A stretch of DNA of 64,000 nucleotides from a virus, in IMG/VR virus record IMGVR_UViG_3300031857_000025. One strand, given 5' to 3'. A model generated the notes under the pieces. The model searched no databases. It had not been told where the DNA came from and saw only the letters and a list, made by a program, of their open reading frames with translations. Position 1 is the stretch's first letter, and the number at the start of each line of letters is the position of its first letter. Below, piece after piece: positions 39,967 to 63,854 of the stretch. A program made the translations under genes and the position numbers.

Positions 39967-40383
39967 ATGTACGGTGAGCAGTATTGGTATGGTAAAGAGG
40001 TCGAAGGTCGATACTCTGATGTTGAAACAGTTTTTGTAAGAAGTGGTATTCCTACGGATATTTTAGAGTATCCTCATGCATACTTTACAATTGAGTATGT
40101 GCGAGAAATGATTAAAAAGAATGATTGGTCAATTGTACATATGATTCTTAAGACTCGTCAAATTGTAACGGTCGAAGCTACTGCTGATACATTAGATCAT
40201 ATTCCAATGTCAGTATTTAATAGAGCACATATTATCTATCGTATTCCTGATAGTCATTTGGCTAAACTAAAGAAAACTGATACATTGTCAATTGATGCTG
40301 GTTGGTACCGAGTTCATCAGATTATGAAATGCAACTTAATGGAAATCAATCCAGATGATTATAAATTCGATAGATTAAAGTAA
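39967..40383 (+). CDS. Hypothetical protein coupled to the GT-DpdA genes
   Basis: 138 aa (YWYGKEVEGR...TVFV...Y.FD); TAATG overlap with the next gene. Confidence 0.65.
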   Translation: MYGEQYWYGKEVEGRYSDVETVFVRSGIPTDILEYPHAYFTIEYVREMIKKNDWSIVHMILKTRQIVTVEATADTLDHIPMSVFNRAHIIYRIPDSHLAKLKKTDTLSIDAGWYRVHQIMKCNLMEINPDDYKFDRLK

Positions 40384-41573
40384 TGAAAAGAAATATATTT
40401 TATTTTGGCCTAGAGCCATTAAAAGCTAGATATACTTATCAGCTATGCGAAGAATGGATGCCTAAAACTTTTGAGGCATACAAAGATCGTTTAAACTTTA
40501 TTCCGATGCCAGGAGAGTTCGATCCCGATCAAGAAATCAAAGTAGGTGCCGTGTTAGATGCAATTGGTAGAGGCAAGTATAGTTTGACTCAATGTCAAAA
40601 CTTCTTGAAAATGATCTATGATGGTACGGTTAAAGACGGTGACGTTATTTTCTTGCAAGACTATTGGACTCCAGGTTTAGATGCTATTTGGTATGCTTTG
40701 GATTTATATAATATCAAAGTTAAGGTATATGCAATGTTACATGCTCAATCAGTTGATGAATATGACTTTACATATCCGATGGCATATTGGATGCGTCATT
40801 ATGAGTTAGGATTGGATCAACGCATGACCAGTATCTTTGTAGGAAGTACTATCCATAAAGAACAATTGAGAGCGGCTGGGTTCAAAGCTCCTATACATGT
40901 TGTATCGTTACCGATTCATAAACAAGCTACATTAGATGTATTACCTGAATGGAATACATTGGATAAGAAAAATGTAATTGTATACTCAAGTCGATTTGAT
41001 AAGGAAAAGAATCCATTCTTCATGATGGAAGTAGCTGAACAGTTCTTGAAAAAGAATCCGCGATATGAATGGCACGTAACTACATCCGGCAAAGAGTTCC
41101 GTAGTATGTTACCAGGTGTTATCGATGCTATGAATGCATTAGCAAAACGTCAGCCTAGATTTAAAATGTTGAAAGGTTTAACTAAGCAAGAATATTATAC
41201 AGAGTTAGCTACATGTAAGGTACAGTTTAATACATCATTACAAGATTATGTATCATGGACTGTTATCGAGTCAACTGCATTTGGAGCTGATATCGTGTTT
41301 CCTAATTTCAGATCATTCCCAGAGTTTATTGATGCATCTCGATTGTATAAACCGTTTGATGTTCAAGATGCGTTAACGGTATTAAATAATGTACTAGGTA
41401 ATACTAAAACTCATTATGATATTGTTGATCGTTCTGACTTGGGTAGACAAATGGAAGGATATATCATTGCCAATGATTTTGATAAGGAGATATGTATTTG
41501 GCATGAAACAGAATATTGTAAAGCACTTATCAATAGTGAAGTAAAAAATAATCAATTGGAGTTAGAACTATAA
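40383..41573 (+). CDS. GT-B (GT4-like) glycosyltransferase
   Basis: SSRFDKEKNP...LTKQEYY.EL...FNTSLQD...IES.AFG...P.FRSFPE donor-binding half; TAATG-coupled on both sides. Confidence 0.75.
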   Translation: MKRNIFYFGLEPLKARYTYQLCEEWMPKTFEAYKDRLNFIPMPGEFDPDQEIKVGAVLDAIGRGKYSLTQCQNFLKMIYDGTVKDGDVIFLQDYWTPGLDAIWYALDLYNIKVKVYAMLHAQSVDEYDFTYPMAYWMRHYELGLDQRMTSIFVGSTIHKEQLRAAGFKAPIHVVSLPIHKQATLDVLPEWNTLDKKNVIVYSSRFDKEKNPFFMMEVAEQFLKKNPRYEWHVTTSGKEFRSMLPGVIDAMNALAKRQPRFKMLKGLTKQEYYTELATCKVQFNTSLQDYVSWTVIESTAFGADIVFPNFRSFPEFIDASRLYKPFDVQDALTVLNNVLGNTKTHYDIVDRSDLGRQMEGYIIANDFDKEICIWHETEYCKALINSEVKNNQLELEL

Positions 41574-44122: not shown

Positions 44123-46665
<2,543 letters not shown>

Positions 46666-49036: not shown

Positions 49037-50491
49037 ATGAATCAGTTACAATTACCAAAATTACGTAAAATTGATCCTAACAAGCCAAAGAAAAAGAAAA
49101 TTCTTTTACTATCTGATGACCTGCGTATGCATTCTGGTATAGCCACAATGTCACGTGAGTTTGTATTAGGTACAGTAAAAGAGTTTGATTGGATCCAGTT
49201 AGGAGCTGCTATTAAGCATCCGGATGCAGGACAAATGCTAGATCTAAGCGCAGATGTGGCTAGAGAAACCGGTGTAGAGGATGCATCGGTTAAACTTATG
49301 CCATATAATGGTTATGGCGACGCTCATGTATTAAATTATCTAATTAATACAGAAAAGCCAGATGCAATATTACATTTCACTGATCCTAGATTCTGGGGGT
49401 GGTTATATCAGTTAGAACATACTATTCGTCAGCATATACCAATCATGTATTATAATATATGGGATGATTTACCATATCCACATTGGAACGAACCATTTTA
49501 TGAGTCATGTGATTTAATTATGAACATTTCACGTCAAACTCAGAATATCGTAAAAAATGTATTGCAGAAGTTTCCTAAAGAGGAATGGGCAGTTCAGTAT
49601 GTACCTCATGGTATTAATGAAAACAGGTTTTTCCCGATCACAGCTGATCATGATCAATATAAAGAATTTGACATGTTTCAGTCTGACTTTAAAATTAAAA
49701 ACGAAGTCGATTTTATAGTATTCTGGAATAATCGTAATATACGTCGTAAACAGCCAGGTGATTTAATTTTAGCATATAAAACATTTTGTGATAGTTTACC
49801 AAAAGAAAAGTCTAGTCGTTGTGCGTTATTAATGCATACTCAACCTATAGACGAAAATGGTACAGATCTATTTGCCGTTAAAAACGCTGTGTGTCCAGAA
49901 TATAAAGTATTATTTAGTGATCGAAATATTGATACTAAAATGCTGAACTTCTATTATAACATGGCAGATGTAACTGTTAATATCGGTTCTAATGAAGGCT
50001 TTGGGTTATCAGGTGCTGAATCATTAATGGCAGGCACACCTATTATTAATAATGTAACAGGTGGATTACAAGATCATTGCCGATTTGAAGATGAATCTGG
50101 TAAATGGATTGAATTTACGACTGAGTTTCCTAGTAACCATACTGGTAAATATACTAAATGTGGTAAATGGGCTAAACCTGTAATACCGACGAATAGGTCA
50201 CTTCAAGGTTCTATACCTACACCATATATCTTTGATGACCGTGTACGATTTGAAGATGTAGCGGATGCAATTATGTATTGGTATTCAATGTCTAATGAAG
50301 ATAGAACCGCATGCGGTTTAGCTGGACGTGAATGGGTTACATCAGAAGAGTCGATGATGTCGGCTCGTAGAATGAGTGAACGATTTATTGAGTGTATTAA
50401 TTCATGTTTAACTAATTGGACTAAACGCAAAAAATTTACATTATTTAAAGTAGAACAAGAACCAAAATTTGATAAAATAGGTGTAATATGA
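49037..50491 (+). CDS. GT-B (GT4-like) glycosyltransferase
   Basis: SDD...SG, PHGI, NRNIRRK, YYN.AD, SNEGFGLS.AESL.AGTP. Confidence 0.85.
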   Translation: MNQLQLPKLRKIDPNKPKKKKILLLSDDLRMHSGIATMSREFVLGTVKEFDWIQLGAAIKHPDAGQMLDLSADVARETGVEDASVKLMPYNGYGDAHVLNYLINTEKPDAILHFTDPRFWGWLYQLEHTIRQHIPIMYYNIWDDLPYPHWNEPFYESCDLIMNISRQTQNIVKNVLQKFPKEEWAVQYVPHGINENRFFPITADHDQYKEFDMFQSDFKIKNEVDFIVFWNNRNIRRKQPGDLILAYKTFCDSLPKEKSSRCALLMHTQPIDENGTDLFAVKNAVCPEYKVLFSDRNIDTKMLNFYYNMADVTVNIGSNEGFGLSGAESLMAGTPIINNVTGGLQDHCRFEDESGKWIEFTTEFPSNHTGKYTKCGKWAKPVIPTNRSLQGSIPTPYIFDDRVRFEDVADAIMYWYSMSNEDRTACGLAGREWVTSEESMMSARRMSERFIECINSCLTNWTKRKKFTLFKVEQEPKFDKIGVI

Positions 50492-51816
50492 AACCATTCG
50501 TTGTAATACAGGGACCGGTAGCTACCCGGTCAGGCTATGGAAGCCATACTAGAGATTTAGTTACAAGTTTAATTAACTCAGATAAATATGATATACAGAT
50601 AATATCATTACCATGGGGCGTAACTCCAATGGATGCATTGGATCCAAACAATATAGATCATCAAGAAATTGTTAAACGTATTGCAGTGCAAAACATAACA
50701 CGCCAGCCAGATATTTTTATACAGGTGTCAATTCCAAATGAGTTCCAACCACATGGTAAATATAATATTGGAATAACAGCTGGAATAGAAACTGATACAG
50801 TGTCAGCTGAGTTTATTGAGGGATGTAATCGTATGAATTTAATTCTTACTACATCGGAACATTCTAAACAAGGCTTTATTAATACTAAGTATGACAAGCT
50901 AGATAAAAATACTAATCAAAAAATTGGTGAATTACGTTTAGAAAAACCGATTGAAGTATTATTCGAAGGCGTAGATTTAGACGTATATAAAAAGACCAAT
51001 GACATTAATGAACTAGTGTTAAATGAACTCAATTCAATAAAAGAAGGGTTCAATTTTCTATTTGTAGGACATTGGTTAAAGGGAGAGTTAGGTGCTGATC
51101 GAAAGGATGTCGGAATGCTCATTAAAACATTTTGTGAAGCATTTAAAAATAAATCAGCACAGAATAAACCAGGATTAATTCTTAAGACTAGTCATGCTAC
51201 TTTTAGTATTATCGATCGTGAAGAACTCATGAAAAAGATTAATATGATAACGGCGCCATATGGTAAATCGGCACCTAGTATTTATTTACTGCATGGTGAC
51301 TTAACTGATGAACAGATGAACAGTCTATATAATCATCCTAAGATTAAAGCTATGATATCATTTACTCATGGTGAGGGATATGGACGTCCATTATTAGAAT
51401 TTACATTATCAGAAAAACCTGTTATAACCAGTAACTGGTCGGGTCATATAGATTTCTTAAAACATGCAACTTTATTACCGGGAGATGTTAAGGAAGTACA
51501 TCAATCGGCTACAGATAACTGGATACTTACTGGCAGTAAATGGTTTACGGTGAATTATGGTTATGCAGCTAGTATAATGCGTGATATACCAGATAACTAT
51601 AAAAATTATCTTACTTTAGCAAAACGACAGGCATATATATCACGTACTGATTTTAGTTTAACTAAAATGGCTGAAAAATTCTGTGAAATTGTAGATACTG
51701 CGGCAGATAGTATACCTAAACAAATACAACTTCAATTACCTAAATTGAAAAAAATATCCAATGCATCTGAAACATCTAAGATTACATTACCTAAATTAAA
51801 AAAGATTGAAGCATGA
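50488..51816 (+). CDS. GT-B glycosyltransferase
   Basis: SGYG, FLFVGHW...RK, GEGYGRP.LE...KPVI.SNWSGH.DF. Confidence 0.82.
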   Translation: MKPFVVIQGPVATRSGYGSHTRDLVTSLINSDKYDIQIISLPWGVTPMDALDPNNIDHQEIVKRIAVQNITRQPDIFIQVSIPNEFQPHGKYNIGITAGIETDTVSAEFIEGCNRMNLILTTSEHSKQGFINTKYDKLDKNTNQKIGELRLEKPIEVLFEGVDLDVYKKTNDINELVLNELNSIKEGFNFLFVGHWLKGELGADRKDVGMLIKTFCEAFKNKSAQNKPGLILKTSHATFSIIDREELMKKINMITAPYGKSAPSIYLLHGDLTDEQMNSLYNHPKIKAMISFTHGEGYGRPLLEFTLSEKPVITSNWSGHIDFLKHATLLPGDVKEVHQSATDNWILTGSKWFTVNYGYAASIMRDIPDNYKNYLTLAKRQAYISRTDFSLTKMAEKFCEIVDTAADSIPKQIQLQLPKLKKISNASETSKITLPKLKKIEA

Positions 51817-52301
51817 AACTAGATTATGATGAACTATCGCCTATTACTAATAACCTATGTGTACTAGTTGAGGCATTAGATAATGGCATGAATTCATATA
51901 TGTGTATGGAATCGGGTTTTGTTACTAATGATATGTTACGTATTGAGAGTGATATGGTAACTCAATATGAACAGCATATGTCGCAACTAATGCGTGATGT
52001 AAAGCATATAGATGAGTCGCGTGGGTTAGTTTGGTATCCGACGTATATGCAAGTAGGAAATTTTGCATTATATTGTACCGGCACTTCTGCTAAAGATTTA
52101 GGATGGGAAATTGCTGCTATAGTACCGTTATCTGAGGAAGATAGTAAAAACTATCCAATTCCAGGACAAGAAGGTCAGTATTTCACATCACGTATTGATA
52201 CTGATAATAGTCAATTCTTTATCGATTTTACATCAGCAATGAATGCAATGTACAGTTCAGTTGCGAAATTATATCATGAAAATTTGGAAACGGAGTCATA
52301 A
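51813..52301 (+). CDS. Hypothetical protein
   Basis: 162-aa ORF overlapping the upstream GT by ATGA; no recognised motif. Confidence 0.6.
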   Translation: MKLDYDELSPITNNLCVLVEALDNGMNSYMCMESGFVTNDMLRIESDMVTQYEQHMSQLMRDVKHIDESRGLVWYPTYMQVGNFALYCTGTSAKDLGWEIAAIVPLSEEDSKNYPIPGQEGQYFTSRIDTDNSQFFIDFTSAMNAMYSSVAKLYHENLETES

Positions 52302-52318
52302 TTTAATATATTCAGTGT

Positions 52319-52942
52319 ATGAAAATTAGTTATGCAATAACAGTTTGTAATGAGTTGAAGGAGATTAGCAGATTAGTTAATCTCCTTCACCAAAACAAAC
52401 GCATGGAAGATGAGATTTGTGTTTTATTAGATAAACCAAAAGCATCACAAGAATTATTAGATGAACTTTATTATTGGTCATCCAAAGATATAATCACTTT
52501 AAAGGAAAGCGTATTTCAAGGTCATTTTGCAGACTGGAAAAACGAACTAACCAAAATGTGTTCGGGAGATTATATTTTTCAAATTGATGCCGATGAATAT
52601 CCTCATGAATATCTAATCGAAACATTACCTGAAATATTAGAAACTAATTCTGACGTAGAGGTATATGTTGTTCCAAGAGTTAATACAGTGGACGGTTTAA
52701 CAACACAACATATACAAAAATGGGGATGGCATGTAAATCAAGATGGATGGGTGAACTGGCCAGATCGTCAATGGAGATTATATAAAAATTCTCCGAACAT
52801 TAAATGGAAAAACAAAGTGCATGAAGTGATTGAAGGTTATAAAATAATGGCCCAATTACCGGCATATGAAGATTTTTCTTTATATCATCCAAAAACAATA
52901 GAAAGACAGGAACGTCAAAATAACTACTATGAATCAATCTAG
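52319..52942 (+). CDS. GT2 glycosyltransferase
   Basis: ISYAITVCNE, GDYIFQIDADE, WPDRQWRL, W...VHE. Confidence 0.85.
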   Translation: MKISYAITVCNELKEISRLVNLLHQNKRMEDEICVLLDKPKASQELLDELYYWSSKDIITLKESVFQGHFADWKNELTKMCSGDYIFQIDADEYPHEYLIETLPEILETNSDVEVYVVPRVNTVDGLTTQHIQKWGWHVNQDGWVNWPDRQWRLYKNSPNIKWKNKVHEVIEGYKIMAQLPAYEDFSLYHPKTIERQERQNNYYESI

Positions 52943-53783
52943 CCCGCTCACTTTTTGTATATCAACATATAATAATCTGCCTTATCTTAAGATAGCAATA
53001 GATTCGGTTAGAAAAAATAGTTATTTTAAAGAAGCGCCATTTATAGTTCATTCGGAAAATTGTACAGATGGTACTAACGAATGGTTATTTGAAAACAAAG
53101 AAAGATATAATTTAACATTAGTTATCGAGCCTCAAACTATCGAAGTTAGGGGTATAGGTGGCGGTATGAATGTTTGCGCAGATCATGTCGAAACAGAATA
53201 TATAATGTTTCTGCATTCAGATTTTTATGTTACTAAAAACTGGGATATTGAATTGTTAAAAATACATGAACGATATCCTAATGAAAAGTTATGGGTGAAC
53301 TCTTATAGGATTGAGCCTAATACATTTAATTCCCCAGACCGTCATGGTACAACATTTGTTCCTTTAGATATGTTTGGTGCATATCATTATAATTTCAATT
53401 CAGAAGAATTTGAACAATGGGCTGATGAATTTAAAGTTATGAATCAGTCATATGAAGTCCCAAAAGGTGAAGGTGTTTCGGGTCTAGTTAAAAAAATGGT
53501 ATGGGATGAAGTAGGTGGTAATGATCCAATATTTGCTCCGGCTAGTTGGGATGATATGGATTTATTTTTACGTATGTTACAACATGAAGTTAGATTCGTA
53601 TTACCTGCTACTTCAATAGTATGGCATTTTGGTGCCAGGGGTAGTCATCGATTAGAAGAGAATAATGGGCAAACATCACAACGACAGCGAGATTCAGAAC
53701 AAAAAAATATACAAAAATGGTTGTATAAATGGAAAAGATTACCTATATTTAACGAATATGGTATGATAGAAAAGTTTAATTAA
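52929..53783 (+). CDS. GT2 glycosyltransferase
   Basis: TFCISTYNN, CTDGT, EYIMFLHSD, VGG.D..F...DD.DLF.R, VWHF. Confidence 0.82.
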   Translation: MNQSSPLTFCISTYNNLPYLKIAIDSVRKNSYFKEAPFIVHSENCTDGTNEWLFENKERYNLTLVIEPQTIEVRGIGGGMNVCADHVETEYIMFLHSDFYVTKNWDIELLKIHERYPNEKLWVNSYRIEPNTFNSPDRHGTTFVPLDMFGAYHYNFNSEEFEQWADEFKVMNQSYEVPKGEGVSGLVKKMVWDEVGGNDPIFAPASWDDMDLFLRMLQHEVRFVLPATSIVWHFGARGSHRLEENNGQTSQRQRDSEQKNIQKWLYKWKRLPIFNEYGMIEKFN

Positions 53784-53798
53784 ATAAAAAGGAGACAG

Positions 53799-54371
53799 AT
53801 GTCATTTATGATTAATGAAAAATATGGATTTTGGGAAGGTGGCGGTCATGCAAATCACGTGTTTGATCATCCATTGGCTAATGCACTATTAAATATATTT
53901 AATACGTTAAATATTAAAAGTGTTGTAGACTTTGGTTGTGGAACAGGTGATTATACTAAATTTTTTATTGATAATGGTATAAATTGTGAAGGATATGATG
54001 GAAATCCTAATACTACTGAAGTATCAGGGGGCGTATGCGGAGTATTAAACTTAGCTAATTCCGTAAATTTAGGTAAAACGTTTGATTGTGTACTTAGTTT
54101 AGAAGTAGGTGAACATTTACCTAAAGAGTATGAAGATATTTTTATACAAAATTTAGAAACTCACTCAAAAGGATTAATTATATTATCTTGGGCACTTCCC
54201 GGTCAGGGAGGAGGAGGACATTTTAATGAACAAAGTAATGAATATATCACTGAAAAATTCTTAAAGTTTGGATATAAAAGGCAGGAACATTTAGAATTAC
54301 AACTTAGACAATCACCAGCAAATTGGTGGTTTAGGAATACGATAATGGTGTTTACAACTAAAGACATATGA
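53799..54371 (+). CDS. Class I SAM methyltransferase
   Basis: VVDFGCGTG, GYDGN, FDCVLSLEVGEH, PGQGG.GH.NEQ. Confidence 0.85.
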   Translation: MSFMINEKYGFWEGGGHANHVFDHPLANALLNIFNTLNIKSVVDFGCGTGDYTKFFIDNGINCEGYDGNPNTTEVSGGVCGVLNLANSVNLGKTFDCVLSLEVGEHLPKEYEDIFIQNLETHSKGLIILSWALPGQGGGGHFNEQSNEYITEKFLKFGYKRQEHLELQLRQSPANWWFRNTIMVFTTKDI

Positions 54372-55108
54372 TACACGCAGTTATATTATATTCTACTAAT
54401 GATTATAGATTTTTTGATACTTGTATATCAAATCTAATTAAATCTAACATTCACTGTCATATTGTTACATATTCTCATATGTGGAATGGTTCGGTAGAAA
54501 ATTATGAATTACTTGAAAATAGTATATCACAATTTAAAGGTAATAAGTTAGTTAATTTGTATAACATTGATTGGACAGAAGGACAGTCTCCATGGTATTG
54601 GGAAGCATTGGGTCGATATTTAGCTACGCAGGAAGTATCTGATGATAGTGAATATATACTGTACATTGATATTGATGAAATTATTGATATTGATGATTTT
54701 AATATTTGGAAAAGTAATAATTTCTTAAATTATCAATCATATGATTTGATTAGGTTACCTAACTATTGGTATTTTAGAGAACCAATATACCAAGCTACAT
54801 GTATTGAACATAGTCCAATACTCGTAAACTCACAAATAGCTAAAGTATTACCATTTTATCCAGGCGGCAGAAATGTATACATTGATAGAATTTATAACAA
54901 ACTAACAGATAATTCACAACCATTTATACATCATTATTCATGGGTACGTACTAAAGAAGAAATGTTACGTAAGGTAAATAACTGGGGACATGATAAAGAT
55001 AAAAATTGGTCTGAATTAGTCGAAGAAGAATTTCTTAGACCATTTAATGGTACTGATTTTGTACATAAGTATTCATATACTATAGTAGATAACAAATTTA
55101 ATTTATAA
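54368..55108 (+). CDS. GT2-like glycosyltransferase
   Basis: YILYIDIDE (DxD), HHYSWVR...K..NWGH. Confidence 0.7.
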   Translation: MIHAVILYSTNDYRFFDTCISNLIKSNIHCHIVTYSHMWNGSVENYELLENSISQFKGNKLVNLYNIDWTEGQSPWYWEALGRYLATQEVSDDSEYILYIDIDEIIDIDDFNIWKSNNFLNYQSYDLIRLPNYWYFREPIYQATCIEHSPILVNSQIAKVLPFYPGGRNVYIDRIYNKLTDNSQPFIHHYSWVRTKEEMLRKVNNWGHDKDKNWSELVEEEFLRPFNGTDFVHKYSYTIVDNKFNL

Positions 55109-55113
55109 AAATA

Positions 55114-55737
55114 ATGAAACAGTTAACAACAATAGGGTTACAGACTAACACTGATAAAGCAACGTACCATAGATTTACGGAAATTTATGATGATATATTC
55201 TCACAATACACATCGCCTAGAATTTTGGAAATTGGTGTATATAATTTTGCTTCGATAGCAATGTATCAACAATACTTTAATAATCCATATATAGTAGCTA
55301 TGGATATAGATGATAAGTCGCAATATGTTAATGATAGTTGGAAATTTGTACATGGTGATCAAACTAAAATTGAGGATTTAGCTAAATGTGTATGTGATGA
55401 GAGTGAAAAATTTGATATTATTCTAGATGACGGTGGACATACTATGAAACAGCAGCAAATAACTTTTGGGTTTTTAATAGATTATGTGAAACCTGGAGGG
55501 TATTATATACTAGAAGATCTTCATACTTCATTCAGACGTGATTATATTGACAGTGATTGTAAAGTAACTACGTATGATATGTTAATTTATATATACAACA
55601 ATGAGTTAAATTTTAGTAATTATATAGATATGACCCAACAAAATAATATACTAAATAAAATCGACGATATAACAATATGGGCTAAAGATACTGATAATTT
55701 ATATGACAGTGTCACTGCTATAATAAAGATAAAGTAA
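55114..55737 (+). CDS. SAM-dependent (sugar) O-methyltransferase
   Basis: TDK...H.F..IY, LEIGV, GDQ, DIILDDGGH, PGGYYILEDLHTS. Confidence 0.82.
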   Translation: MKQLTTIGLQTNTDKATYHRFTEIYDDIFSQYTSPRILEIGVYNFASIAMYQQYFNNPYIVAMDIDDKSQYVNDSWKFVHGDQTKIEDLAKCVCDESEKFDIILDDGGHTMKQQQITFGFLIDYVKPGGYYILEDLHTSFRRDYIDSDCKVTTYDMLIYIYNNELNFSNYIDMTQQNNILNKIDDITIWAKDTDNLYDSVTAIIKIK

Positions 55738-55743
55738 TTTAAT

Positions 55744-56469
55744 ATGTTAATAGCAACACTTAACCATAACCTACCTGAGTTAACAGATAATCTTGTTAAT
55801 CAACTTAAACGTGATCCATTATTTACGTCATGTGAATTAATGGTCATTGATAATGGTTCAAAAACTCAATTAGCTAAATCAACCACTCATCAGTTACAAG
55901 AAAATATTTTCTTCGGAGGCGGACTAAATGCAGCTATTGAGTATTTTTTATCTACAGACCATGACTATCTATATTTTCTAAATAATGATTTAATATTTCA
56001 TGGACCTGCATTTTTAACAGTGTCACTTAAAGAAGCAAAAGAATCGGCTGCTGCAGTATATTCACCGTCTATTATCAATGCATCAACTGATCAGTGTCAT
56101 TGGCGTCAGATGTGGAACTGGGGTCAAGGTCTACGTGATGTTAAGTGGATTGATTTTCAATGTCCATTATTACGTAGAGATGTTTTAGAAATTATACGAC
56201 AATATCCAGAAGAATTAATATATGGATGGGGAAATGATTTTTATACAGGATGTATTTCTGAACAATATAATTTAAAAACAGTTGTATCAGATACTAATAC
56301 TATTTGTCATTTGAATTCACAAACATTTGCTCAAAATAAAATTGATATTGGCGTTTCTGAGTTTTGTCGAAGAGCCGAAACAAATATGAATAACTTTTTT
56401 AGGAATTCTGAAATGAATTCATTATACTTAAGTTTAAGAACTTATAGCGAAACTTATGACCCTAGATAA
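55744..56469 (+). CDS. GT2 glycosyltransferase
   Basis: LNHN, VIDNGS, FGGG.N, YFLNND, GWG.D. Confidence 0.78.
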   Translation: MLIATLNHNLPELTDNLVNQLKRDPLFTSCELMVIDNGSKTQLAKSTTHQLQENIFFGGGLNAAIEYFLSTDHDYLYFLNNDLIFHGPAFLTVSLKEAKESAAAVYSPSIINASTDQCHWRQMWNWGQGLRDVKWIDFQCPLLRRDVLEIIRQYPEELIYGWGNDFYTGCISEQYNLKTVVSDTNTICHLNSQTFAQNKIDIGVSEFCRRAETNMNNFFRNSEMNSLYLSLRTYSETYDPR

Positions 56470-57088
56470 TTTAGCGAACAAATATGACACGGATAAAGGC
56501 CCGGAAGGTCATATGTACACTTCTAAGTATAGCATTTACTTAGAAGCTTATAGAGATATAGAATTTAATCTTTTAGAAATTGGCGTATATAACGGAGCAT
56601 CTGTTAAAATGTGGAAAGAGTACTTTCCAAAAGCGAATATAGTAGCTATAGACATTGATCCTAGATGTAAAGAATATGAAGAAGACAGAATTACTATCCA
56701 TATAGGAGATCAGACAGATGTGAATTTTTTAAATGAAGTGTTTGATAAACATGGTCATTTTGAAGTGATATTAGATGATGGTGGGCATTCATTTAAACAG
56801 CAAATCATTTCATTTGAAACTTTATTTCCTAGATTGACGTCAGGCGGATTGTATTTTCTAGAAGATATGCATACATCATACAGACCTAAAAGTATATGGG
56901 ATGATTATTATATTACGGGAGTAAACTATTTTAAAAATTTAATTGACGCCGTAAATCTAAATGGCAAAAGCTTTTGTGGTTATAAAGAAATTAATAACCA
57001 GCCATTAACCTATTTAGAAAGAAATGTAGACTATATACATTTTTACAAAAGTATGTTAACAATCGGAAAAAAAGAAACTAGTCTATGA
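56456..57088 (+). CDS. SAM-dependent (sugar) O-methyltransferase (paralog of 55114)
   Basis: TDK...H.Y..KY, LLEIGV, AIDID, GDQ, ILDDGGH, GGLYFLEDMHTS. Confidence 0.82.
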   Translation: MTLDNLANKYDTDKGPEGHMYTSKYSIYLEAYRDIEFNLLEIGVYNGASVKMWKEYFPKANIVAIDIDPRCKEYEEDRITIHIGDQTDVNFLNEVFDKHGHFEVILDDGGHSFKQQIISFETLFPRLTSGGLYFLEDMHTSYRPKSIWDDYYITGVNYFKNLIDAVNLNGKSFCGYKEINNQPLTYLERNVDYIHFYKSMLTIGKKETSL

Positions 57089-57894
57089 TATCATGCGATT
57101 TTAACGGCCGATTAGGAAATAATTTATTTCAAATAGCTACTGTAGTATCATTGGCTAATCAAATCGGCATTGATTTTATTTTACCAGAGTTAACGCATGC
57201 GGGTCATAGAGGTGACATACCAGTCGATTTAAGTATGTTTGCCTATCCTTTTAATCGAGGTAAGAATGAAATTGATCATGAATATCATGAATCTTCTTTT
57301 GAATACGGTTATATCGAGCCTAAAGATAAATTAAATTTAGGAGGATTTTTTCAATCATGGAAGTATTTTGAAAATATCAAAGAGCTACTATTAAATAAAT
57401 ACTTTATTCCATCGTCTAATGTTTTAGAAGGATTGAGTAAGTATATAATATCTGATAATAGCTTAGGAATTAGTGTTAGACGCGGTGACTATTTAATGTT
57501 ACAAGATAACCATTGTGTTTTAGATGTTACATATTATCAAGAAGTACTTGATACATATTTTCAAGATAATATTGACCAAATATTTGTATTTTCAGATGAT
57601 CTGGATTGGTGTAAATCAATTTTTGGGCCTGAAGTAAATTATGTTCAAGACTCAATAGGAGTGCAATTATTCTTGATGACTAAGATGAAACATTTAATTT
57701 TATCTAATAGTACTTTTGCATGGTGGGGTGGATATTTAAACCAGAATAGTGGAATTATAGTTGCTCCGAACCCATGGTTCGGACCCAATAACGCTAATAT
57801 AAACACATATGATTTATATTATAAAAATTGGGTACTACACAATCATAATATTATATCACATGACTATCAGTTAACACTAAATATGTTTAATTAA
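57085..57894 (+). CDS. GT11 alpha-1,2-fucosyltransferase-like enzyme
   Basis: GRLGNNLFQ, GFFQSWKYF, SVRRGDY, FSDD..WC, SNSTFAWWG, P.PWF. Confidence 0.88.
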   Translation: MISCDFNGRLGNNLFQIATVVSLANQIGIDFILPELTHAGHRGDIPVDLSMFAYPFNRGKNEIDHEYHESSFEYGYIEPKDKLNLGGFFQSWKYFENIKELLLNKYFIPSSNVLEGLSKYIISDNSLGISVRRGDYLMLQDNHCVLDVTYYQEVLDTYFQDNIDQIFVFSDDLDWCKSIFGPEVNYVQDSIGVQLFLMTKMKHLILSNSTFAWWGGYLNQNSGIIVAPNPWFGPNNANINTYDLYYKNWVLHNHNIISHDYQLTLNMFN

Positions 57895-57895
57895 T

Positions 57896-58771
57896 ATGAA
57901 AATAATGCACATAATATACCAGATGCATGTAACGTGGTTTGAAACTGAAATGGCTCTTGAAACTATGCAATCCGTTAAAGAAGCTATTACGTATACAAAT
58001 CTACCAGTTAAAATTAAATTATGCTTTAATAAGCAAACAAAATTTGACACACCGATTAATAAGACTATTGATGATATGTTTATTGAATTACTGGAACATG
58101 ATTTAGTTAAACAATCTGAAATAACTTGGAAGACGGATGATGATGAATTTTATAATGTCGGCGATTGGCGTCGTGATTGTTATGACGCCAATAATATTAC
58201 TATCTGGGGCGAGTCTGATTGCTTAGTACCTACTACATATTTTGGATATATTGAAAACATATTTACATCTAATATATCATATCCGTTTATAGTTACAATT
58301 AAGCAAAAGAAAATGTGGGATGAATCATGGGGACCTACCGAACATGAAGCGTTTCAAAATTTTAATTTAGATCAAGTACGTTCCATAAATAATAAATTTG
58401 TTACAGGTGAAGGATTATTAAATTTAGATGAATTAAATACATTTAATAATGCATTTAGTGAATTTCATGATCTTAAGTCTATAGATTATTATAAAGGCGA
58501 TGGCGCATTAGTTTGTTTGAGTCCAAATATGCCAGTACCATTTATATCACCTAAACTACATATGTGCGGCGAGGATACATACTTTTTTAATTACTGTCGT
58601 ATAAAACAAATACCTATGTATACTATTGCATATTATATGAAAGGTCATAATACAGCACATCCTAAAAAACGTACTAATCATACTCGGAGCCAATCACAAC
58701 ATCATGAATTTTCATTATTTGATAATAATATGAGAATAGTCGCATCAACTAGTTTAAATGAATTATTATGA
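57896..58771 (+). CDS. Putative GT-A glycosyltransferase
   Basis: IWGESD (ExD), GED..F and HN..HP; lies inside the glycan cluster. Confidence 0.5.
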   Translation: MKIMHIIYQMHVTWFETEMALETMQSVKEAITYTNLPVKIKLCFNKQTKFDTPINKTIDDMFIELLEHDLVKQSEITWKTDDDEFYNVGDWRRDCYDANNITIWGESDCLVPTTYFGYIENIFTSNISYPFIVTIKQKKMWDESWGPTEHEAFQNFNLDQVRSINNKFVTGEGLLNLDELNTFNNAFSEFHDLKSIDYYKGDGALVCLSPNMPVPFISPKLHMCGEDTYFFNYCRIKQIPMYTIAYYMKGHNTAHPKKRTNHTRSQSQHHEFSLFDNNMRIVASTSLNELL

Positions 58772-59736
58772 TAATAACATCATGTCCGTTACGAATATCA
58801 TTAGTAGGTGGTTCTACAGACAACCCACGTTTCTTAGAAAAGTATGGCAGTGGTTCTGTGATTAGTTTTGCATCCAACTTACATGTATATATTACTCTGC
58901 ATCAGGATATATTTGGTGCTACTTCATTGGATAAGAAATATATTATCAATTATTCAAAACGTGAATCTGTAAATAATATAAAGCAAATCGAAAATGAGCT
59001 AGTACGTAGTTGTTTTGAATATCTTGATGTAGAACATCTGAATTGTTTTATGACATCTGATGTATTTTCAGTAGGATCTGGATTGGCATCTTCATCTGCA
59101 TATTTACTTGCATTAATTAAATCTATATATGCATTACGTAAACAGTATGTTACTGAATTTGAGGTATGTAAAATAGCGGAACGTATTGAAAGGACATTTA
59201 ATCCGTTAGTCGGTCAACAAGACTTTTATGGATCCATGGGTGGATTAAAAAAAATTAAATTTTATAATAAGTATGATCCTGAAATTAGATATCTAGATAC
59301 GACTATTTTTAGTGATATGGATATGTATTTAGTATATACAGGTATAACACGTAGCTCTACAACAGTATTAGAGAGTTTAAATGTTGATAAGTCGGTTACA
59401 TTACTAAATGATGTTAATGACTTAGAAATAGCAATCAATACAAATGATTTAGATCTATTTCATAGCGTTATTAATAGAACATGGTCAAATAAAAAACAGA
59501 CGTCTAGTGTTATTTGCGAAAATACTACATTAATTGAACTTGATAAGCGACTAACGCAAGATAATAATGTGTTATCTCATAAACTACTAGGCGCTGGTAA
59601 TGGAGGGTATTTTTTATTGTTTACCCGTAAGGGTATCGAATCTATTATACAAGGTTCTTATAATAACGTGAATAAAATTTATATATCCGATATTGGATTA
59701 AATACAACTAACTTATATGATACTACAAGACTATAA
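58768..59736 (+). CDS. hddA: GHMP kinase, D-glycero-alpha-D-manno-heptose-7-phosphate kinase-like
   Basis: PLRISLVGGSTD, GSGLASSSA, GQQD.Y...GG, KLLGAGNGGY; adjacent to gmhA. Confidence 0.82.
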   Translation: MIITSCPLRISLVGGSTDNPRFLEKYGSGSVISFASNLHVYITLHQDIFGATSLDKKYIINYSKRESVNNIKQIENELVRSCFEYLDVEHLNCFMTSDVFSVGSGLASSSAYLLALIKSIYALRKQYVTEFEVCKIAERIERTFNPLVGQQDFYGSMGGLKKIKFYNKYDPEIRYLDTTIFSDMDMYLVYTGITRSSTTVLESLNVDKSVTLLNDVNDLEIAINTNDLDLFHSVINRTWSNKKQTSSVICENTTLIELDKRLTQDNNVLSHKLLGAGNGGYFLLFTRKGIESIIQGSYNNVNKIYISDIGLNTTNLYDTTRL

Positions 59737-60217
59737 ACAATGCGTATCTGATATATCAGAACGTCAATTGGCAGAACTCAAGACTATTATTAATAATTAC
59801 CATGACATTATCATTTTAGGAAATGGCGGTAGTAATGCAATTAGTAGCCATATCGCAGAAGATTATACAAAGACGTTAGGAAAACGTGCATTATCCTTTA
59901 GTGACTCAGCACGTATGAGTTGTTATGCAAACGACTACGGATGGGAAAGGGCATATTCAATGTTTATAAAACATTTTGCAATAGACACTACGTTAGTAAT
60001 TTTAATATCATCATCTGGTAATTCAGATAATATATTACAGGCAGCAGAGTATTGTGTAGTACACAGTATACCATTTATAACATTATCAGGTTTTTTAGTT
60101 TCAAACAAATTAAATAACTGTTATGGTAGTAAGTCTTTAATTAACTTCCATATTAATAGTAATGACTATGGTATTGTAGAATGTATTCATGAATTAATAT
60201 TACATTCAGTGCTATGA
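59717..60217 (+). CDS. gmhA: Phosphoheptose isomerase (SIS domain)
   Basis: GNGGSNAISSH, ANDYG, ISSSGNS.NI, LSG, YG.VE..H..ILH. Confidence 0.88.
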   Translation: MILQDYKQCVSDISERQLAELKTIINNYHDIIILGNGGSNAISSHIAEDYTKTLGKRALSFSDSARMSCYANDYGWERAYSMFIKHFAIDTTLVILISSSGNSDNILQAAEYCVVHSIPFITLSGFLVSNKLNNCYGSKSLINFHINSNDYGIVECIHELILHSVL

Positions 60218-60930
60218 TATATTGTTTTGATCTAGATAATACAATTTGTAAAACTATTGATAAAGATTATAGTAATGCATTACCGGATCTTTATGTTATT
60301 AATTCTATTAACCAATTATACGATAGTGGTAATCAAATAAAAATATTTACGGCCCGTGGCATGGGTCAGTTTAATGGTAATATTCATAAAGTGTATGATT
60401 ACCATTATATGGCTACTAAAATGCAATTAGAGGCATGGAACGTAAAACATCATGAATTAATATTAGGTAAACCGTCATATGATATTTTCGTTGATGATAA
60501 AAATATGACAGTTGAACTATTTAAGAAGTATGCAATACGAGGTGTAATTGCAGGAGCTTTCGATGTGATACATCCAGGGTATATACATATGTTTCAGGAA
60601 ATGTCTAAATTATGTACACATTTAACAGTATTACTACATACCGATCCTACATTGGAACGACCATCTAAATTAAAACCTATATTAACAATTGACGAACGTT
60701 GTAGTATATTATCGTCTATTCGTTATGTGGATGATGTTATAGTATATAATACTGAAGATGAATTATATGAGATACTTAAAAATAGTGAGTTTAATATTAG
60801 GTTTTTAGGTAAAGATTATTTATATTCAGACTATACCGGAAAAGATTTACCTATTAATATACATTTTATCAATAGGGATCATGGATGGTCATCGACAAAA
60901 TTTAAAAAACTAATTGCATCTAACATTTAA
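60214..60930 (+). CDS. Fusion of a HAD phosphatase and a cytidylyltransferase-family nucleotidyltransferase
   Basis: N-terminal half FDLDNTIC, FTARG, GKP..D.FVDDK; C-terminal half GAFDVIHPGY, ER...L...RYVD.V, G.DY, SSTK. Confidence 0.82.
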   Translation: MIYCFDLDNTICKTIDKDYSNALPDLYVINSINQLYDSGNQIKIFTARGMGQFNGNIHKVYDYHYMATKMQLEAWNVKHHELILGKPSYDIFVDDKNMTVELFKKYAIRGVIAGAFDVIHPGYIHMFQEMSKLCTHLTVLLHTDPTLERPSKLKPILTIDERCSILSSIRYVDDVIVYNTEDELYEILKNSEFNIRFLGKDYLYSDYTGKDLPINIHFINRDHGWSSTKFKKLIASNI

Positions 60931-60941
60931 AGGATAATTAT

Positions 60942-61793
60942 ATGAATAGTAGTTTTGAAAAAAATATACATTATGTATGGCTAGGAAATGAGCCACATGA
61001 AATGATGTTTGTAGAGTATCTAAGTATAGTATCTTCTATAATGTATTGTCAACCGAAGTCTATAAACATATGGTCTGAAGTAGATTTTTATGGTAAGTAT
61101 TATGAAGCACTAAAAGACGTGTTAACGATACATAAAATAAAAAAGGATCTGGAGATATATGGTAATAAAATTATTCATACACCTATACACGGATGGTCTG
61201 ATATATATAGAAACTTGATTATTTATGAATATGGCGGCATTTACTGTGATTTTGATATATTATGGTGTAAAGATATCTCACCTTTATTAGAAAGTATAGA
61301 TTCATTTGCTATAGCCGAACAGGGAATCCATGGCCGTGAAGGGTGTAATATGGGTGTTATGATCGGTGAAAAGAATCATAAATTCTGTGAAATGTATCTG
61401 CAACTATATCAAAAATACGATGAATATGAACAAAAAAATCATATAGGTTTATTCTCAACACAATATCCTCAACAGATTGCATTATCAATTAAAGATGAAA
61501 TGACAATTTTACCATATACAACATTCCATTGGCCGTTATATCATACAAATTCTATACGATGGTTTTATTTTAATCGACCCGATGATAAAAATACATTAGT
61601 AGATAATCTAAGTGGTCAGTTATCATCGGATACGTTACTTGATAATTATGCACATCATTGTTTTGGAATTAAACACCCTGGAATAAATGAGTATATTACA
61701 GAGGAATTTATACTTAATGAAGACACATCATTTACACGAAAAGCAAAGGCAGTATTAAATTATGGAAAAAATAACTTTTTGCATTCCAAGTAA
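60942..61793 (+). CDS. GT32-like DxD glycosyltransferase
   Basis: IHYVWLG, SDIYR, YGGIYCDFD. Confidence 0.8.
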   Translation: MNSSFEKNIHYVWLGNEPHEMMFVEYLSIVSSIMYCQPKSINIWSEVDFYGKYYEALKDVLTIHKIKKDLEIYGNKIIHTPIHGWSDIYRNLIIYEYGGIYCDFDILWCKDISPLLESIDSFAIAEQGIHGREGCNMGVMIGEKNHKFCEMYLQLYQKYDEYEQKNHIGLFSTQYPQQIALSIKDEMTILPYTTFHWPLYHTNSIRWFYFNRPDDKNTLVDNLSGQLSSDTLLDNYAHHCFGIKHPGINEYITEEFILNEDTSFTRKAKAVLNYGKNNFLHSK

Positions 61794-62949
61794 ATCTAAT
61801 TTGCGATATCTTAAAACATGTATTCCATCTATACGCAAAAACGCATACAGAGAGGATCATGATATCATTGTATTTGTTGATAGCGACGAGGATGGTACAA
61901 TAGAATGGCTAGATTCCATTAAAGACGAATATAACGTAAAATATTTTGTCAACCCAGAATTAGGTAAACGACTTTATGGCATCGGTAAGGCCTATGATTT
62001 TTGTATTGAGCAATCTATAACAGATGTCTTTATGATATTTCATGCTGATATGATGTTAGGTAAAAATGCAGACTATCTAGCATTCAAGCATCTCAAAGAA
62101 AAAACCGTAGTTTGTTCAACACGTGTTGAGCCGCCAATACATCCTAATAACGGTGAAAAAATCTTAATGGATTTTGGTATGTGGCCAGAAGAGTTTGATG
62201 CAAAAGAGTTTGACGAATTTACGGAACTGCATAAACATAACAATAAAACTACTGACGGTATATTTGCACCATGGATGATGTATAAAACAGATTTCATATC
62301 GCTAGGCGGCCATGATGCAATACTAAAGTCATGCAGAGAAGACTCAGATGTATTTAATAGAATGAAACTTGCTGGATATACATTTATTCAGCCATGGAAT
62401 TCTTTAGTGTATCATTTAACGGGACGCGGAGCTGGTAGTTTTGATGGTGATACGACTAGGCATGAAGCTTGGAAAAAGGAAATGAATAATTCAACTAAGG
62501 AATTTATACGTAAATGGGGATCTAATGTAAATCATACACCATTAATGCATCCTATAGTATCTAAAAAACGTAATATTGCATTTGTAATGAAAAATGGTAA
62601 TTTGCCATTATTAGAGGCATTAGAACCATGGTGTGATAGGATTTATGTAGATGAGCGATTTGCTATTGGCAAAGCCTATGACTATATTGAAATGGGACAA
62701 GAAAATACATCCTATGATTTACGTAAACGAGTATTAATGATAAATGAAAATGATCCAGAAGGAGAGAATGATGTAGTTGTAGTGTTTGACGGTAATCATG
62801 TTACCCAGCAAACATTCGAACTGCTGCAGCGTATGTCAGATATTATAACAGGTACAAATGATACCGGAGAATTTGAAATTGACTGTTTAACTATAATAGT
62901 CAATAGTTTAGAAACATATGAACATAATTTAATTAAAGTAGAAAAATGA
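61762..62949 (+). CDS. GT2 glycosyltransferase with extra C-terminal domain (paralog of 52929)
   Basis: ITFCIPS..NL.YLK, DGT.EWL, IFHADM, GG.D, EDSD.F.R, VYH, F.RKWG. Confidence 0.82.
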   Translation: MEKITFCIPSKSNLRYLKTCIPSIRKNAYREDHDIIVFVDSDEDGTIEWLDSIKDEYNVKYFVNPELGKRLYGIGKAYDFCIEQSITDVFMIFHADMMLGKNADYLAFKHLKEKTVVCSTRVEPPIHPNNGEKILMDFGMWPEEFDAKEFDEFTELHKHNNKTTDGIFAPWMMYKTDFISLGGHDAILKSCREDSDVFNRMKLAGYTFIQPWNSLVYHLTGRGAGSFDGDTTRHEAWKKEMNNSTKEFIRKWGSNVNHTPLMHPIVSKKRNIAFVMKNGNLPLLEALEPWCDRIYVDERFAIGKAYDYIEMGQENTSYDLRKRVLMINENDPEGENDVVVVFDGNHVTQQTFELLQRMSDIITGTNDTGEFEIDCLTIIVNSLETYEHNLIKVEK

Positions 62950-63854
62950 AACATGCAGTAATTGGCGGTGCAGGATTTATCGGACACCACATTGTTAACA
63001 AATTAATCGAACGAGGTGATGAGGTTATCGTAATTGATAATTTATCAACTGGATATTTAGCGAATGTACATGAAAAGGCACGTTTTCATCAATTTGATAT
63101 TATCGACGAAGTAGCAGTAAAAGTTATATCAGATCTGCTGTATGGAGTAGATACTGTTTACTTAACTGCTGCATTAGCTCGAGTACAACCATCTATAGAA
63201 CAGCCTATATTATTCAATGAAACTAACGTAACTGGCATGTTACGTGTATTAGAAGCATGTCGTACGGCACAAGTACGTCGTGTAGTCTTTTCATCGTCTA
63301 GTAGCGTTTATGGTGAAACGATAGTATATCCAACGCCGGAACATACTCCGGTTAATCCACTTAGTCCATATGCATTGCAAAAGTTTATTGGAGAACATTA
63401 TTGTAGACTATATAGTCAAATATATAATCTAGATACAGTATCATTACGCTATTTTAATGTATATGGTAATGGCATGCCATTAGAAGGGGCATATCGCTCC
63501 GTATTAAGTATCTTTGGTAATCAATATAAGAATGATCAGCCATTAACGTATACAAACGACGGATGTCAGTCTCGAGATTTTGTGCATGTGCATGATGTAG
63601 CTGATATTAATATACTTCTAGGAGATTATCATGAACCAATAATGGGGGACGTATATAATGTTGGTACTGGATATGATTATTCAGTAAATCAGATCATGGA
63701 TATGTTTGGTAGCCCTCGACAGTTCCTAGAAAATCGAATAGAACCTATACGTACATTAGCTGATATAAGTAAATTACAAGCAAAGTTCGGATGGGAACCT
63801 ACTGGTAGTTTAGCCGCCTTTATCGAACAGTATAAGAAAGATCTTAAATCATAA
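62946..63854 (+). CDS. NAD-dependent NDP-sugar epimerase/dehydratase
   Basis: GGAGFIG, IDNLSTG, SSSSVYG, SPYALQK (YxxxK), LRYFNVYG, RDFVHV.D. Confidence 0.92.
   Translation: MKHAVIGGAGFIGHHIVNKLIERGDEVIVIDNLSTGYLANVHEKARFHQFDIIDEVAVKVISDLLYGVDTVYLTAALARVQPSIEQPILFNETNVTGMLRVLEACRTAQVRRVVFSSSSSVYGETIVYPTPEHTPVNPLSPYALQKFIGEHYCRLYSQIYNLDTVSLRYFNVYGNGMPLEGAYRSVLSIFGNQYKNDQPLTYTNDGCQSRDFVHVHDVADINILLGDYHEPIMGDVYNVGTGYDYSVNQIMDMFGSPRQFLENRIEPIRTLADISKLQAKFGWEPTGSLAAFIEQYKKDLKS

Follow-up and report, generated by a model that had tools for sequence, protein, structure and literature searches.

Can a phage make an activated heptose for its own glycosyltransferases, and by which route would it do so? 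The question is raised by three overlapping open reading frames (ORFs) in a viral sequence of 64,000 nucleotides, IMG/VR record IMGVR_UViG_3300031857_000025, which we call the window. A first-pass annotation had described an HddA-like GHMP kinase, a GmhA-like isomerase, and a fusion of a HAD phosphatase with a nucleotidyltransferase (NT), all overlapping in one run. Our analysis bears this arrangement out: the ORFs all lie on the + strand, and neighbors overlap by 4 to 20 bases (Table 1). We consider it fairly probable that these three genes, together with a GalE-like short-chain dehydrogenase/reductase (SDR) downstream, form a self-contained route to nucleoside diphosphate (NDP)-heptose for the glycosyltransferases of the island in which they lie.

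Enzymes encoded by the cassette

The first gene encodes a kinase whose best NCBIfam match is HddA (NF049969; E 3e-22, 79.5 bits), followed by fucokinase at 43 and galactokinase at 40 bits. Its four best matches in the PDB are all heptose-7-phosphate kinases, namely 4n3o (HddA; E 6.6e-19), 3k85, and WcbL (4usk/4usm). GHMP motifs I–III (P.R....GG..D, GSGLASSSA, and GAGNGG), along with G.QD, are kept in at least 95% of 37 cassette homologs.

The product of the second gene has GmhA models as its top three NCBIfam matches (E 3.5e-15; 56.1, 53.2, and 47 bits), with DiaA lower at 26.8, and its best PDB matches are all phosphoheptose isomerases (GmhA). No KdsD or API model of NCBIfam was matched, and the models for phosphoglucose and phosphomannose isomerases reached only 16–18 bits (E 0.0008–0.003). 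Aligned with E. coli GmhA, the protein keeps GNGGS (S55), H61, D94, S119, S121, S124, and H180, with T120 replaced by S. Two further active-site changes, E65 to D and Q172 to E, are conservative and fixed across the cassette family. H61, E65, Q172, and H180 make up the catalytic and metal set of the E. coli enzyme, and GNGGS and S119–S124 bind phosphate. Conservation of these residues in the 37 cassette homologs is at least 89%, except at S119/S121 (89%/66% consensus). Isomerase and kinase together point to sedoheptulose 7-phosphate as the likely starting compound.

The third ORF encodes the two-domain fusion. Its N-terminal HAD domain, with the motif DLDNT, matches TIGR01689 (EcbF/BcbF) at 51.3 bits, short of the subfamily cut-off of 162, and matches PDB entry 9iqw at E 3.6e-14 alone and 4.8e-25 with the family profile, at 35% identity. 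That structure is AfhF, the D-arabinose-1,5-diphosphate phosphatase of phage HY126, a Mg-dependent enzyme that strips the terminal phosphate ahead of nucleotide activation (PMC13326640). In a 47-member alignment D6, D8, T10, K86, and D95 are invariant, and T46 and D94 are at least 90% conserved. The domain is a homolog of AfhF and belongs to the HAD-IIIC group that holds EcbF, BcbF, and AfhF. The phosphatase step that had been proposed is present, but the enzyme is not of the GmhB type: HAD-IIIA scores only 16.3 bits on the domain, and an E. coli GmhB query matched no ORF in the window or in 154 loci.

Stand-alone HAD-IIIC genes occur on about 20 viral contigs within nonulosonic-acid clusters, in the company of NeuB, a CMP-sugar synthetase, a DegT aminotransferase, and a UDP-GlcNAc 2-epimerase. 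This setting suggests that they are sugar-9-phosphate phosphatases. Since stand-alone genes occur in such clusters, HAD-IIIC is not heptose-specific.

The C-terminal domain of the fusion has the cytidylyltransferase fold. It reads HPGY in place of the HxGH nucleotide-binding motif, as had been noticed before, and the substitution is a family signature: H120, G122, and Y123 are invariant in the 47-member alignment, and of the 105 NT domains of the family, both fused and free-standing, 99 have HxGY. The second signature, R-x-H-G-W-S-T-T, reads RDHGWSST here. The domain is 25% identical to E. coli HldE domain II. It scores 47.2 bits with the model for that domain (rfaE_dom_II, TIGR02199), against a cut-off of 181.5, and 48.5 bits with the TagD model (TIGR01518), against a cut-off of 165.4; relative to TagD, Tyr replaces the second His, and the C-terminal motif retains its R, G, S, and T. 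The first position of that motif is Arg, as in cytidylyltransferases (TagD has RTEGISTT). The motif of heptose NTs has F or L there (PMC11573728). Because R-x-x-G-x-S-T-T is shared with TagD, CCT, and ECT, CTP is hinted at as the nucleotide. The enzyme mix is hybrid, as the first-pass annotation claimed, with an alpha-route GHMP kinase and a PF01467 NT of the beta-route fold in one cassette.

Linkage across phages and picocyanobacteria

Beyond the identity of the domains, the retention of catalytic residues, and the fusion itself, the analysis shows that the genes are tightly linked across phages and picocyanobacteria. We counted neighbors within four genes of the fusion at 39 loci from IMG/VR and GTDB genomes that hold the full fusion. 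An HddA-like gene was present at 38 of these loci and a GmhA-like gene at 37; a GalE-like SDR was likewise present at 37, mostly directly after the fusion, and a GT11 gene at 19. The fusion family is large, with 1915 database matches of similar length, the best 120 of which cover at least 87% of the query, and its Atlas clusters are mostly viral. The search in other genomes that the first-pass annotation called for thus found the fusion in many phages and in Prochlorococcus. The cassette is carried by the cultured Synechococcus phage SynMITS9220M01 as gp204–207, and it stands on Prochlorococcus contigs with cellular neighbors, in glycan loci with GT2, GT4, and a sugar-transferase-cluster gene.

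The same activities are also joined in other ways. On a contig labeled Pacearchaeota (L135:5910-6842), a 310-amino-acid protein fuses a GmhA-like domain to an HPGY NT, and an HddA-like gene lies 2 kb upstream. On a SAR11 contig, the ORF that comes after the NT was assigned, by cluster match, to the same protein cluster. Conserved synteny and these alternative fusions strongly support a predicted coupling of isomerase, kinase, phosphatase, and NT activities.

HddC-like/RmlA-like and GmhB queries found no match in the window or in any cassette locus, and the ORFs of the island hold no PF00483 protein, as HddC would be. The probable fifth member, the SDR, is separated from the fusion by two glycosyltransferase genes in the window. 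Its NCBIfam score is 165 for GalE and 116.7 for the HldD model (TIGR02197), whose cut-off is 274.6; its best PDB matches are UDP-hexose and UDP-GlcNAc 4-epimerases.

Table 1. Positions of the cassette, its surroundings, and related genes on other contigs (positions without a locus label are those of the window)
Feature	Position	Strand	Basis
HddA-like GHMP sugar-phosphate kinase, P0001 (322 amino acids)	58768..59736	+	NCBIfam, PDB, GHMP motifs
GmhA-like SIS sugar-phosphate isomerase, P0002 (166 amino acids)	59717..60217	+	NCBIfam, PDB, active-site residues
Two-domain fusion, P0003 (238 amino acids)	60214..60930	+	AF2 model, mean pLDDT 89.6
HAD-IIIC phosphatase domain, residues 1-105 of P0003	60214..60528	+	TIGR01689, PDB 9iqw/1xpj, HAD motifs
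Cytidylyltransferase-fold NT domain, residues 108-238 of P0003	60535..60930	+	PF01467, 42.6 bits, E 8.7e-11
HPGY for HxGH nucleotide-binding motif, residues 120-123	60571..60582	+	direct reading
GalE-like extended SDR, probable fifth cassette member	62946..63854	+	PF01370, 199 bits
Glycan island, about ten glycosyltransferases and three methyltransferases	49037..63854	+	Pfam
GT4-like genes	49037 and 50488	+	Pfam
GT2 genes	52319, 52929, 55744, 61762	+	Pfam
Methyltransferases	53799, 55114, 56456	+	Pfam
GT11-family glycosyltransferase, frequent cassette neighbor	57085..57894	+	PF01531, 91 bits
DXD glycosyltransferase	60942	+	Pfam
Stand-alone HAD-IIIC nonulosonic-acid cluster, examples	L050:4204-5040, L049:1911-2564, L055:6579-7727, L049:5003-6004		
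Free-standing HPGY NT, examples	L113:7013-7417, L093:7025-7447, L094:6998-7405		

A proposed pathway to NDP-heptose

That an isomerase, an anomeric-type kinase, and a phosphatase are needed together implies a course from ketose phosphate through aldose phosphate and 1,omega-bisphosphate to 1-phosphate. This logic, with an NDP-sugar at its end, is well supported, and heptose is the most likely sugar, if unproven. The GmhA-like isomerase would convert sedoheptulose 7-phosphate to D-glycero-D-manno-heptose 7-phosphate. The HddA-like kinase would then add a phosphate at O1; like other GHMP anomeric kinases, it would presumably form the alpha-1,7-bisphosphate, from which the AfhF-like domain would take off the terminal 7-phosphate. 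The fused PF01467 domain would join heptose 1-phosphate to a nucleoside triphosphate, with CTP suggested, and the SDR would epimerize the NDP-heptose. Which sugar, anomer, and nucleotide are involved, in which order phosphatase and NT act, and which glycan is the target are all inferred.

A more specific version can be offered only tentatively. The cassette may make a dedicated CDP-activated alpha-heptose, or the epimer that the SDR forms from it, with phosphatase and NT as non-orthologous replacements and with an NT that works with Tyr in its motif. We hold this to be possible but doubtful as a whole. No record of the CDP/alpha-heptose combination of nucleotide and anomer turned up in the literature or databases that we searched.

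Several observations weigh against the heptose pathway. First, the scores are low. The kinase reaches 79.5 bits against an HddA cut-off of 600, or 13% of it. The isomerase falls below the GmhA cut-offs of 209–276 bits, with 56.1 against 265 for NF001628 and 53.2 for TIGR00441, or 21–27% of the cut-offs. All four domains lie far below their equivalog cut-offs, and substrate identity is therefore not established by homology. The earlier claim of a complete NDP-heptose pathway stands for the four activities and their linkage, but is not established for the sugar.

Second, the NT domain is at least as close to TagD and ECT as to HldC. Its profile scores 86.7 bits with ECT (two domains), 80.5 with TagD, and 45.7 with HldC among PDB entries, and the best Foldseek matches are the TagD structures 2b7l and 1coz (TM 0.83–0.85, compared with 0.62 for HldC). 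The first-pass annotation had named a TagD-like transferase as the result that would overturn it. The domain goes half of that way, being at least as TagD-like as HldC-like, but its score with the TagD model is still below the cut-off. In addition, the catalytic second His is replaced by Tyr in a motif that is thought to need both histidines. The PF01467 enzymes known to act on a sugar 1-phosphate work with the beta anomer, whereas the product of a GHMP kinase should be alpha.

Third, the closest relatives of the NT (50–62% identical, also with HPGY) are free-standing genes of marine Flavobacteriaceae and Gammaproteobacteria. Five genomes with such a gene, four of them incomplete assemblies and one a complete chromosome, hold no GmhA, HddA-like, HAD-IIIC, HldA, or HldD gene. 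The NT subfamily is not heptose-specific in cells, and the substrate of the fused NT is consequently drawn from its context. Free forms interleave with fused forms at short distances in the NT-domain tree, where the main fused clade has a support of 80 and the window NT sits inside a polytomy; because the two forms are not cleanly separated, the tree is not usable to argue a change of function.

The free-standing genes have three conserved settings of their own. In about 14 marine Gammaproteobacteria the gene follows lapB directly; about 13 Flavobacteriaceae have it flanked by otsAB and a GH15 gene, and in other Bacteroidota it comes after rmlACDB, closing the rml operon. The lapB-adjacent NTs were considered as the missing HldC of an ADP-heptose pathway, a role that would have linked the subfamily to heptose, and rejected; those genomes have a GT9 gene and, although four of the five examined are incomplete assemblies, are without GmhA, HldA, HldD, HddA-like, or HAD-IIIC genes.

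Finally, two further loci count against the pathway. In L041, the closest relative of the island, a HAD domain alone (L041:6001-6318, 105 amino acids) occupies the place of the fusion; the neighboring genes are 66–81% identical to those of the island, and the NT domain is absent from its 12-kb stretch. SynMITS9220M01 encodes a weakly HddC-like NT about 5 kb upstream of its cassette. An NT of this kind was weighed as the real heptose NT and rejected, since neither the window nor any of the 39 cassette loci has one. The gene, gp198, belongs to a stretch, gp198–200 (L155:294-2790), that encodes a weakly HddC-like sugar-1-phosphate NT, an RmlD-like reductase, and a GMD-like 4,6-dehydratase, and that could be a 6-deoxy-sugar branch, with or without use of heptose.

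The first-pass annotation expected NDP-heptose in an unusual anomer/nucleotide form for the neighboring glycosyltransferases. An island of these enzymes does surround the cassette, but sugar, anomer, and nucleotide stay inferences because the scores are below the cut-offs, the phosphatase is not GmhB-like, the NT is at least as TagD-like as HldC-like, and its closest relatives stand free in genomes without GmhA.

Alternative explanations

The same logic might run on another ketose phosphate and yield an NDP-pentose, an NDP-hexose, or some other NDP-sugar in place of NDP-heptose. Indeed, phages run it on ribulose 5-phosphate to make UDP-arabinose, and AfhF, which takes part there, is the nearest relative of the HAD domain among solved structures. 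The shortfall of isomerase and kinase against their family cut-offs, the E65-to-D and Q172-to-E changes in the isomerase active site, and the stand-alone HAD-IIIC genes beside NeuB and CMP-sugar synthetase would all sit well with a different sugar. However, the isomerase matches GmhA models and no KdsD or API model, with the phosphoglucose and phosphomannose isomerase models far behind, and the four best solved relatives of the kinase are all heptokinases. The arabinose pathway itself has a KdsD-type isomerase and a non-GHMP kinase. On balance, we regard a sugar other than heptose as unlikely.

The affinities of the NT raise a different possibility, that it is a TagD-like cytidylyltransferase. 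Its substrate would then be a primary phosphate ester (glycerol 3-phosphate, for example, or heptose 7-phosphate at its 7-phosphate) and its product a CDP-alcohol for phosphodiester-linked glycans, in place of an anomeric NDP-sugar. TagD and ECT are the best solved relatives of the NT, its motif begins with Arg as in RTEGISTT and not with F or L, close free-standing relatives occur in genomes without heptose genes, and many family members are named glycerol-3-phosphate cytidylyltransferase by their sources. Yet the score with the TagD model is no better than that with rfaE_dom_II. A CDP-alcohol would also leave a near-obligatory kinase and a fused phosphatase without a role, and the NT is fused to an AfhF-like sugar-bisphosphate phosphatase here and to the isomerase in L135. 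No TagF/LicD-type transferase was detected by Pfam in the glycan island. We consider this explanation quite improbable.

Use of an NDP-sugar made as proposed to hypermodify phage DNA, as in arabinosyl- and glucosyl-cytosines, and not to assemble a glycan on protein or lipid, is suggested by the T4-like nature of the phage, by the role of the closest characterized HAD relative in phage DNA arabinosylation, and by the share of Escherichia phages among the phage records that match the fusion query (173 of 398; from this enterobacterial group, the record of Serratia phage 4S matches the HAD part only), but we give it very little weight in view of the roughly ten glycosyltransferases and three methyltransferases around the cassette, which are typical of oligosaccharide assembly, the same cassette in cellular Prochlorococcus glycan loci, and the lack of a cytosine-modifying enzyme among the window genes scanned, which were part of its ORFs.

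Comparison with known pathways

It is useful to set the proposed NDP-heptose pathway beside the systems that it resembles. The GDP-D-glycero-alpha-D-manno-heptose pathway consists of GmhA, HddA, GmhB, and HddC and serves the S-layer glycan of Aneurinibacillus and the capsules of Campylobacter and Burkholderia. The cassette shares its GmhA-type SIS isomerase, its HddA-type GHMP kinase, and its four-step logic, and the product of that pathway feeds glycans outside the lipopolysaccharide (LPS) core, as would be the case here. The two differ in the phosphatase, which is HAD-IIIC (AfhF/EcbF-like) here and the HAD-IIIA enzyme GmhB there, and in the NT, which here is a PF01467 domain fused to the phosphatase and there is HddC, with the NTP_transferase fold.

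The ADP-L-glycero-beta-D-manno-heptose pathway consists of GmhA, HldE or HldA plus HldC, GmhB, and HldD. Its NT has the fold found here (HldC/HldE domain II; PDB 5x9q, 3glv), and in both cases an extended SDR follows the NT. In contrast, its kinase is PfkB and ours GHMP, the SDR here is nearer GalE than HldD, and the NT here has HPGY for HxGH and R..GWSST for F..G(C/R)STT.

The phage UDP-D-arabinose pathway shares the sequence of isomerase, kinase, terminal phosphatase, and NT, in addition to the homology of the HAD domain to AfhF. It comprises an arabinose-5-phosphate isomerase, AfhE, and AfhF, leads to arabinosylated cytosine, and is known from phages HY126, RB69, and DLP3 (PMC13326640). It differs in its KdsD-type isomerase, its non-GHMP kinase, an NT of the MurU/LicC fold that is fused to the kinase, and a product that goes onto DNA (PMC13326640). 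As for TagD (PDB 1coz, 2b7l), the NT shares R-x-x-G-x-S-T-T-K and the FD..H.G core with it, whereas it is about 24–28% identical, has Tyr for the second His, is fused to a phosphatase, and is linked to a kinase and an isomerase.

Among phages, gp204–207 of SynMITS9220M01 (MT408532) form the same four-gene cassette in the same order, with a fusion 46.6% identical to ours; that phage differs in the weakly HddC-like NT with 4,6-dehydratase and reductase upstream. In the glycan regions of P-TIM68, S-CAM1, and S-CAM3, a HAD-IIIC phosphatase adjoins a PF01467 NT with GWSST, the two being separate genes there and no SIS isomerase being present. The kinase of P-TIM68 and S-CAM3 is PfkB/HldA-like, and their NT is HldC-like, keeps HPGH, scores 124.8 bits with rfaE_dom_II, and is 34% identical to the NT of the window. 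That this type of phosphatase keeps company with HldA-like and HldC-like enzymes supports, by analogy, the heptose reading of our cassette.

Two genes of these phages that are annotated as phosphoheptose isomerase, P-TIM68 gp195 (L157:5730-6068) and S-CAM3 gp150 (L156:6074-6394), have TIGR01689 as their only match, with none to an SIS/GmhA model. The name looks wrong, in which case these cassettes would be without an isomerase. The matches in S-CAM1 and S-SSM7 carry the same name in their annotation, the scan having covered the first two genes.

The phage and its glycan island

The window comes from an uncultured, T4-like marine phage, and its glycan island continues from 49037 up to the window's end. 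The phage origin is backed by genes for a tail sheath, a T4-type DNA polymerase, ribonucleotide reductase, GroEL, a RecA/UvsX-like protein, a DnaB-like helicase, and a clamp loader, all on the + strand, and G+C is about 29–35% over most of the window. The DNA polymerase is 44% identical to that of Microcystis phage Mel-JY01. When the cassette and a structural block were each compared with isolated phages by blastn, hardly any match appeared.

Directly upstream of the kinase gene, and overlapping it, a gene at window positions 57896–58771 encodes a 291-amino-acid protein with no family match. Homologs (64–74% identity) are kept at the same position in the two closest relatives, L001 and L041, and the protein may be a pathway member or an unrecognized transferase. 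Far from the island, a GT4-like glycosyltransferase gene lies just 3′ of the DNA polymerase gene with one small ORF between, and the phage encodes a full-length GroEL (window 40383–41573 / 45040–46665).

Implications

The cassette is not unique to this phage, and three of its four genes have already been named heptose genes (PMC7378029): in the genome note on SynMITS9220M01, the kinase, the isomerase, and the “epimerase” appear among LPS genes related to heptose (PMC7378029). The fusion that lies between them is a hypothetical protein in the annotation of that phage. Phage gmhA is routinely counted as an auxiliary metabolic gene (PMC9238414, PMC7029224), and marine phage surveys treat gmhA and rfaE alike as auxiliary genes. 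In the literature that we searched, we found no paper on the complete cassette, on many marine phages with every step, on the HAD-IIIC/NT fusion, or on the HxGY motif. Two kinds of annotation error are exposed, namely the “hypothetical” fusion of SynMITS9220M01 and, in several reference genomes of cyanophages, HAD phosphatases that go by the name of phosphoheptose isomerase.

Nucleotide-heptoses are building blocks of the bacterial envelope. ADP-, CDP-, and UDP-heptose are, moreover, innate-immune agonists, and work on NDP-heptose enzymes from different kingdoms has described three architectures for heptose NTs, single-domain, kinase-NT, and isomerase-kinase-NT, none with a phosphatase (PMC11573728). 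The cassette would add a further architecture to these three and would be a second use of an AfhF-type phosphatase, and its NT would be a natural HxGY variant of the two-histidine motif. Because the cassette is present in a cultured pair, SynMITS9220M01 and Synechococcus MIT S9220, its product and target are directly determinable. The cassette is common in marine phages and in the surface-glycan islands of Prochlorococcus. If it does make a CDP-alpha-heptose or the epimer of it, this sugar would be a widespread and unrecognized component of the glycans of ocean microbes and their viruses.

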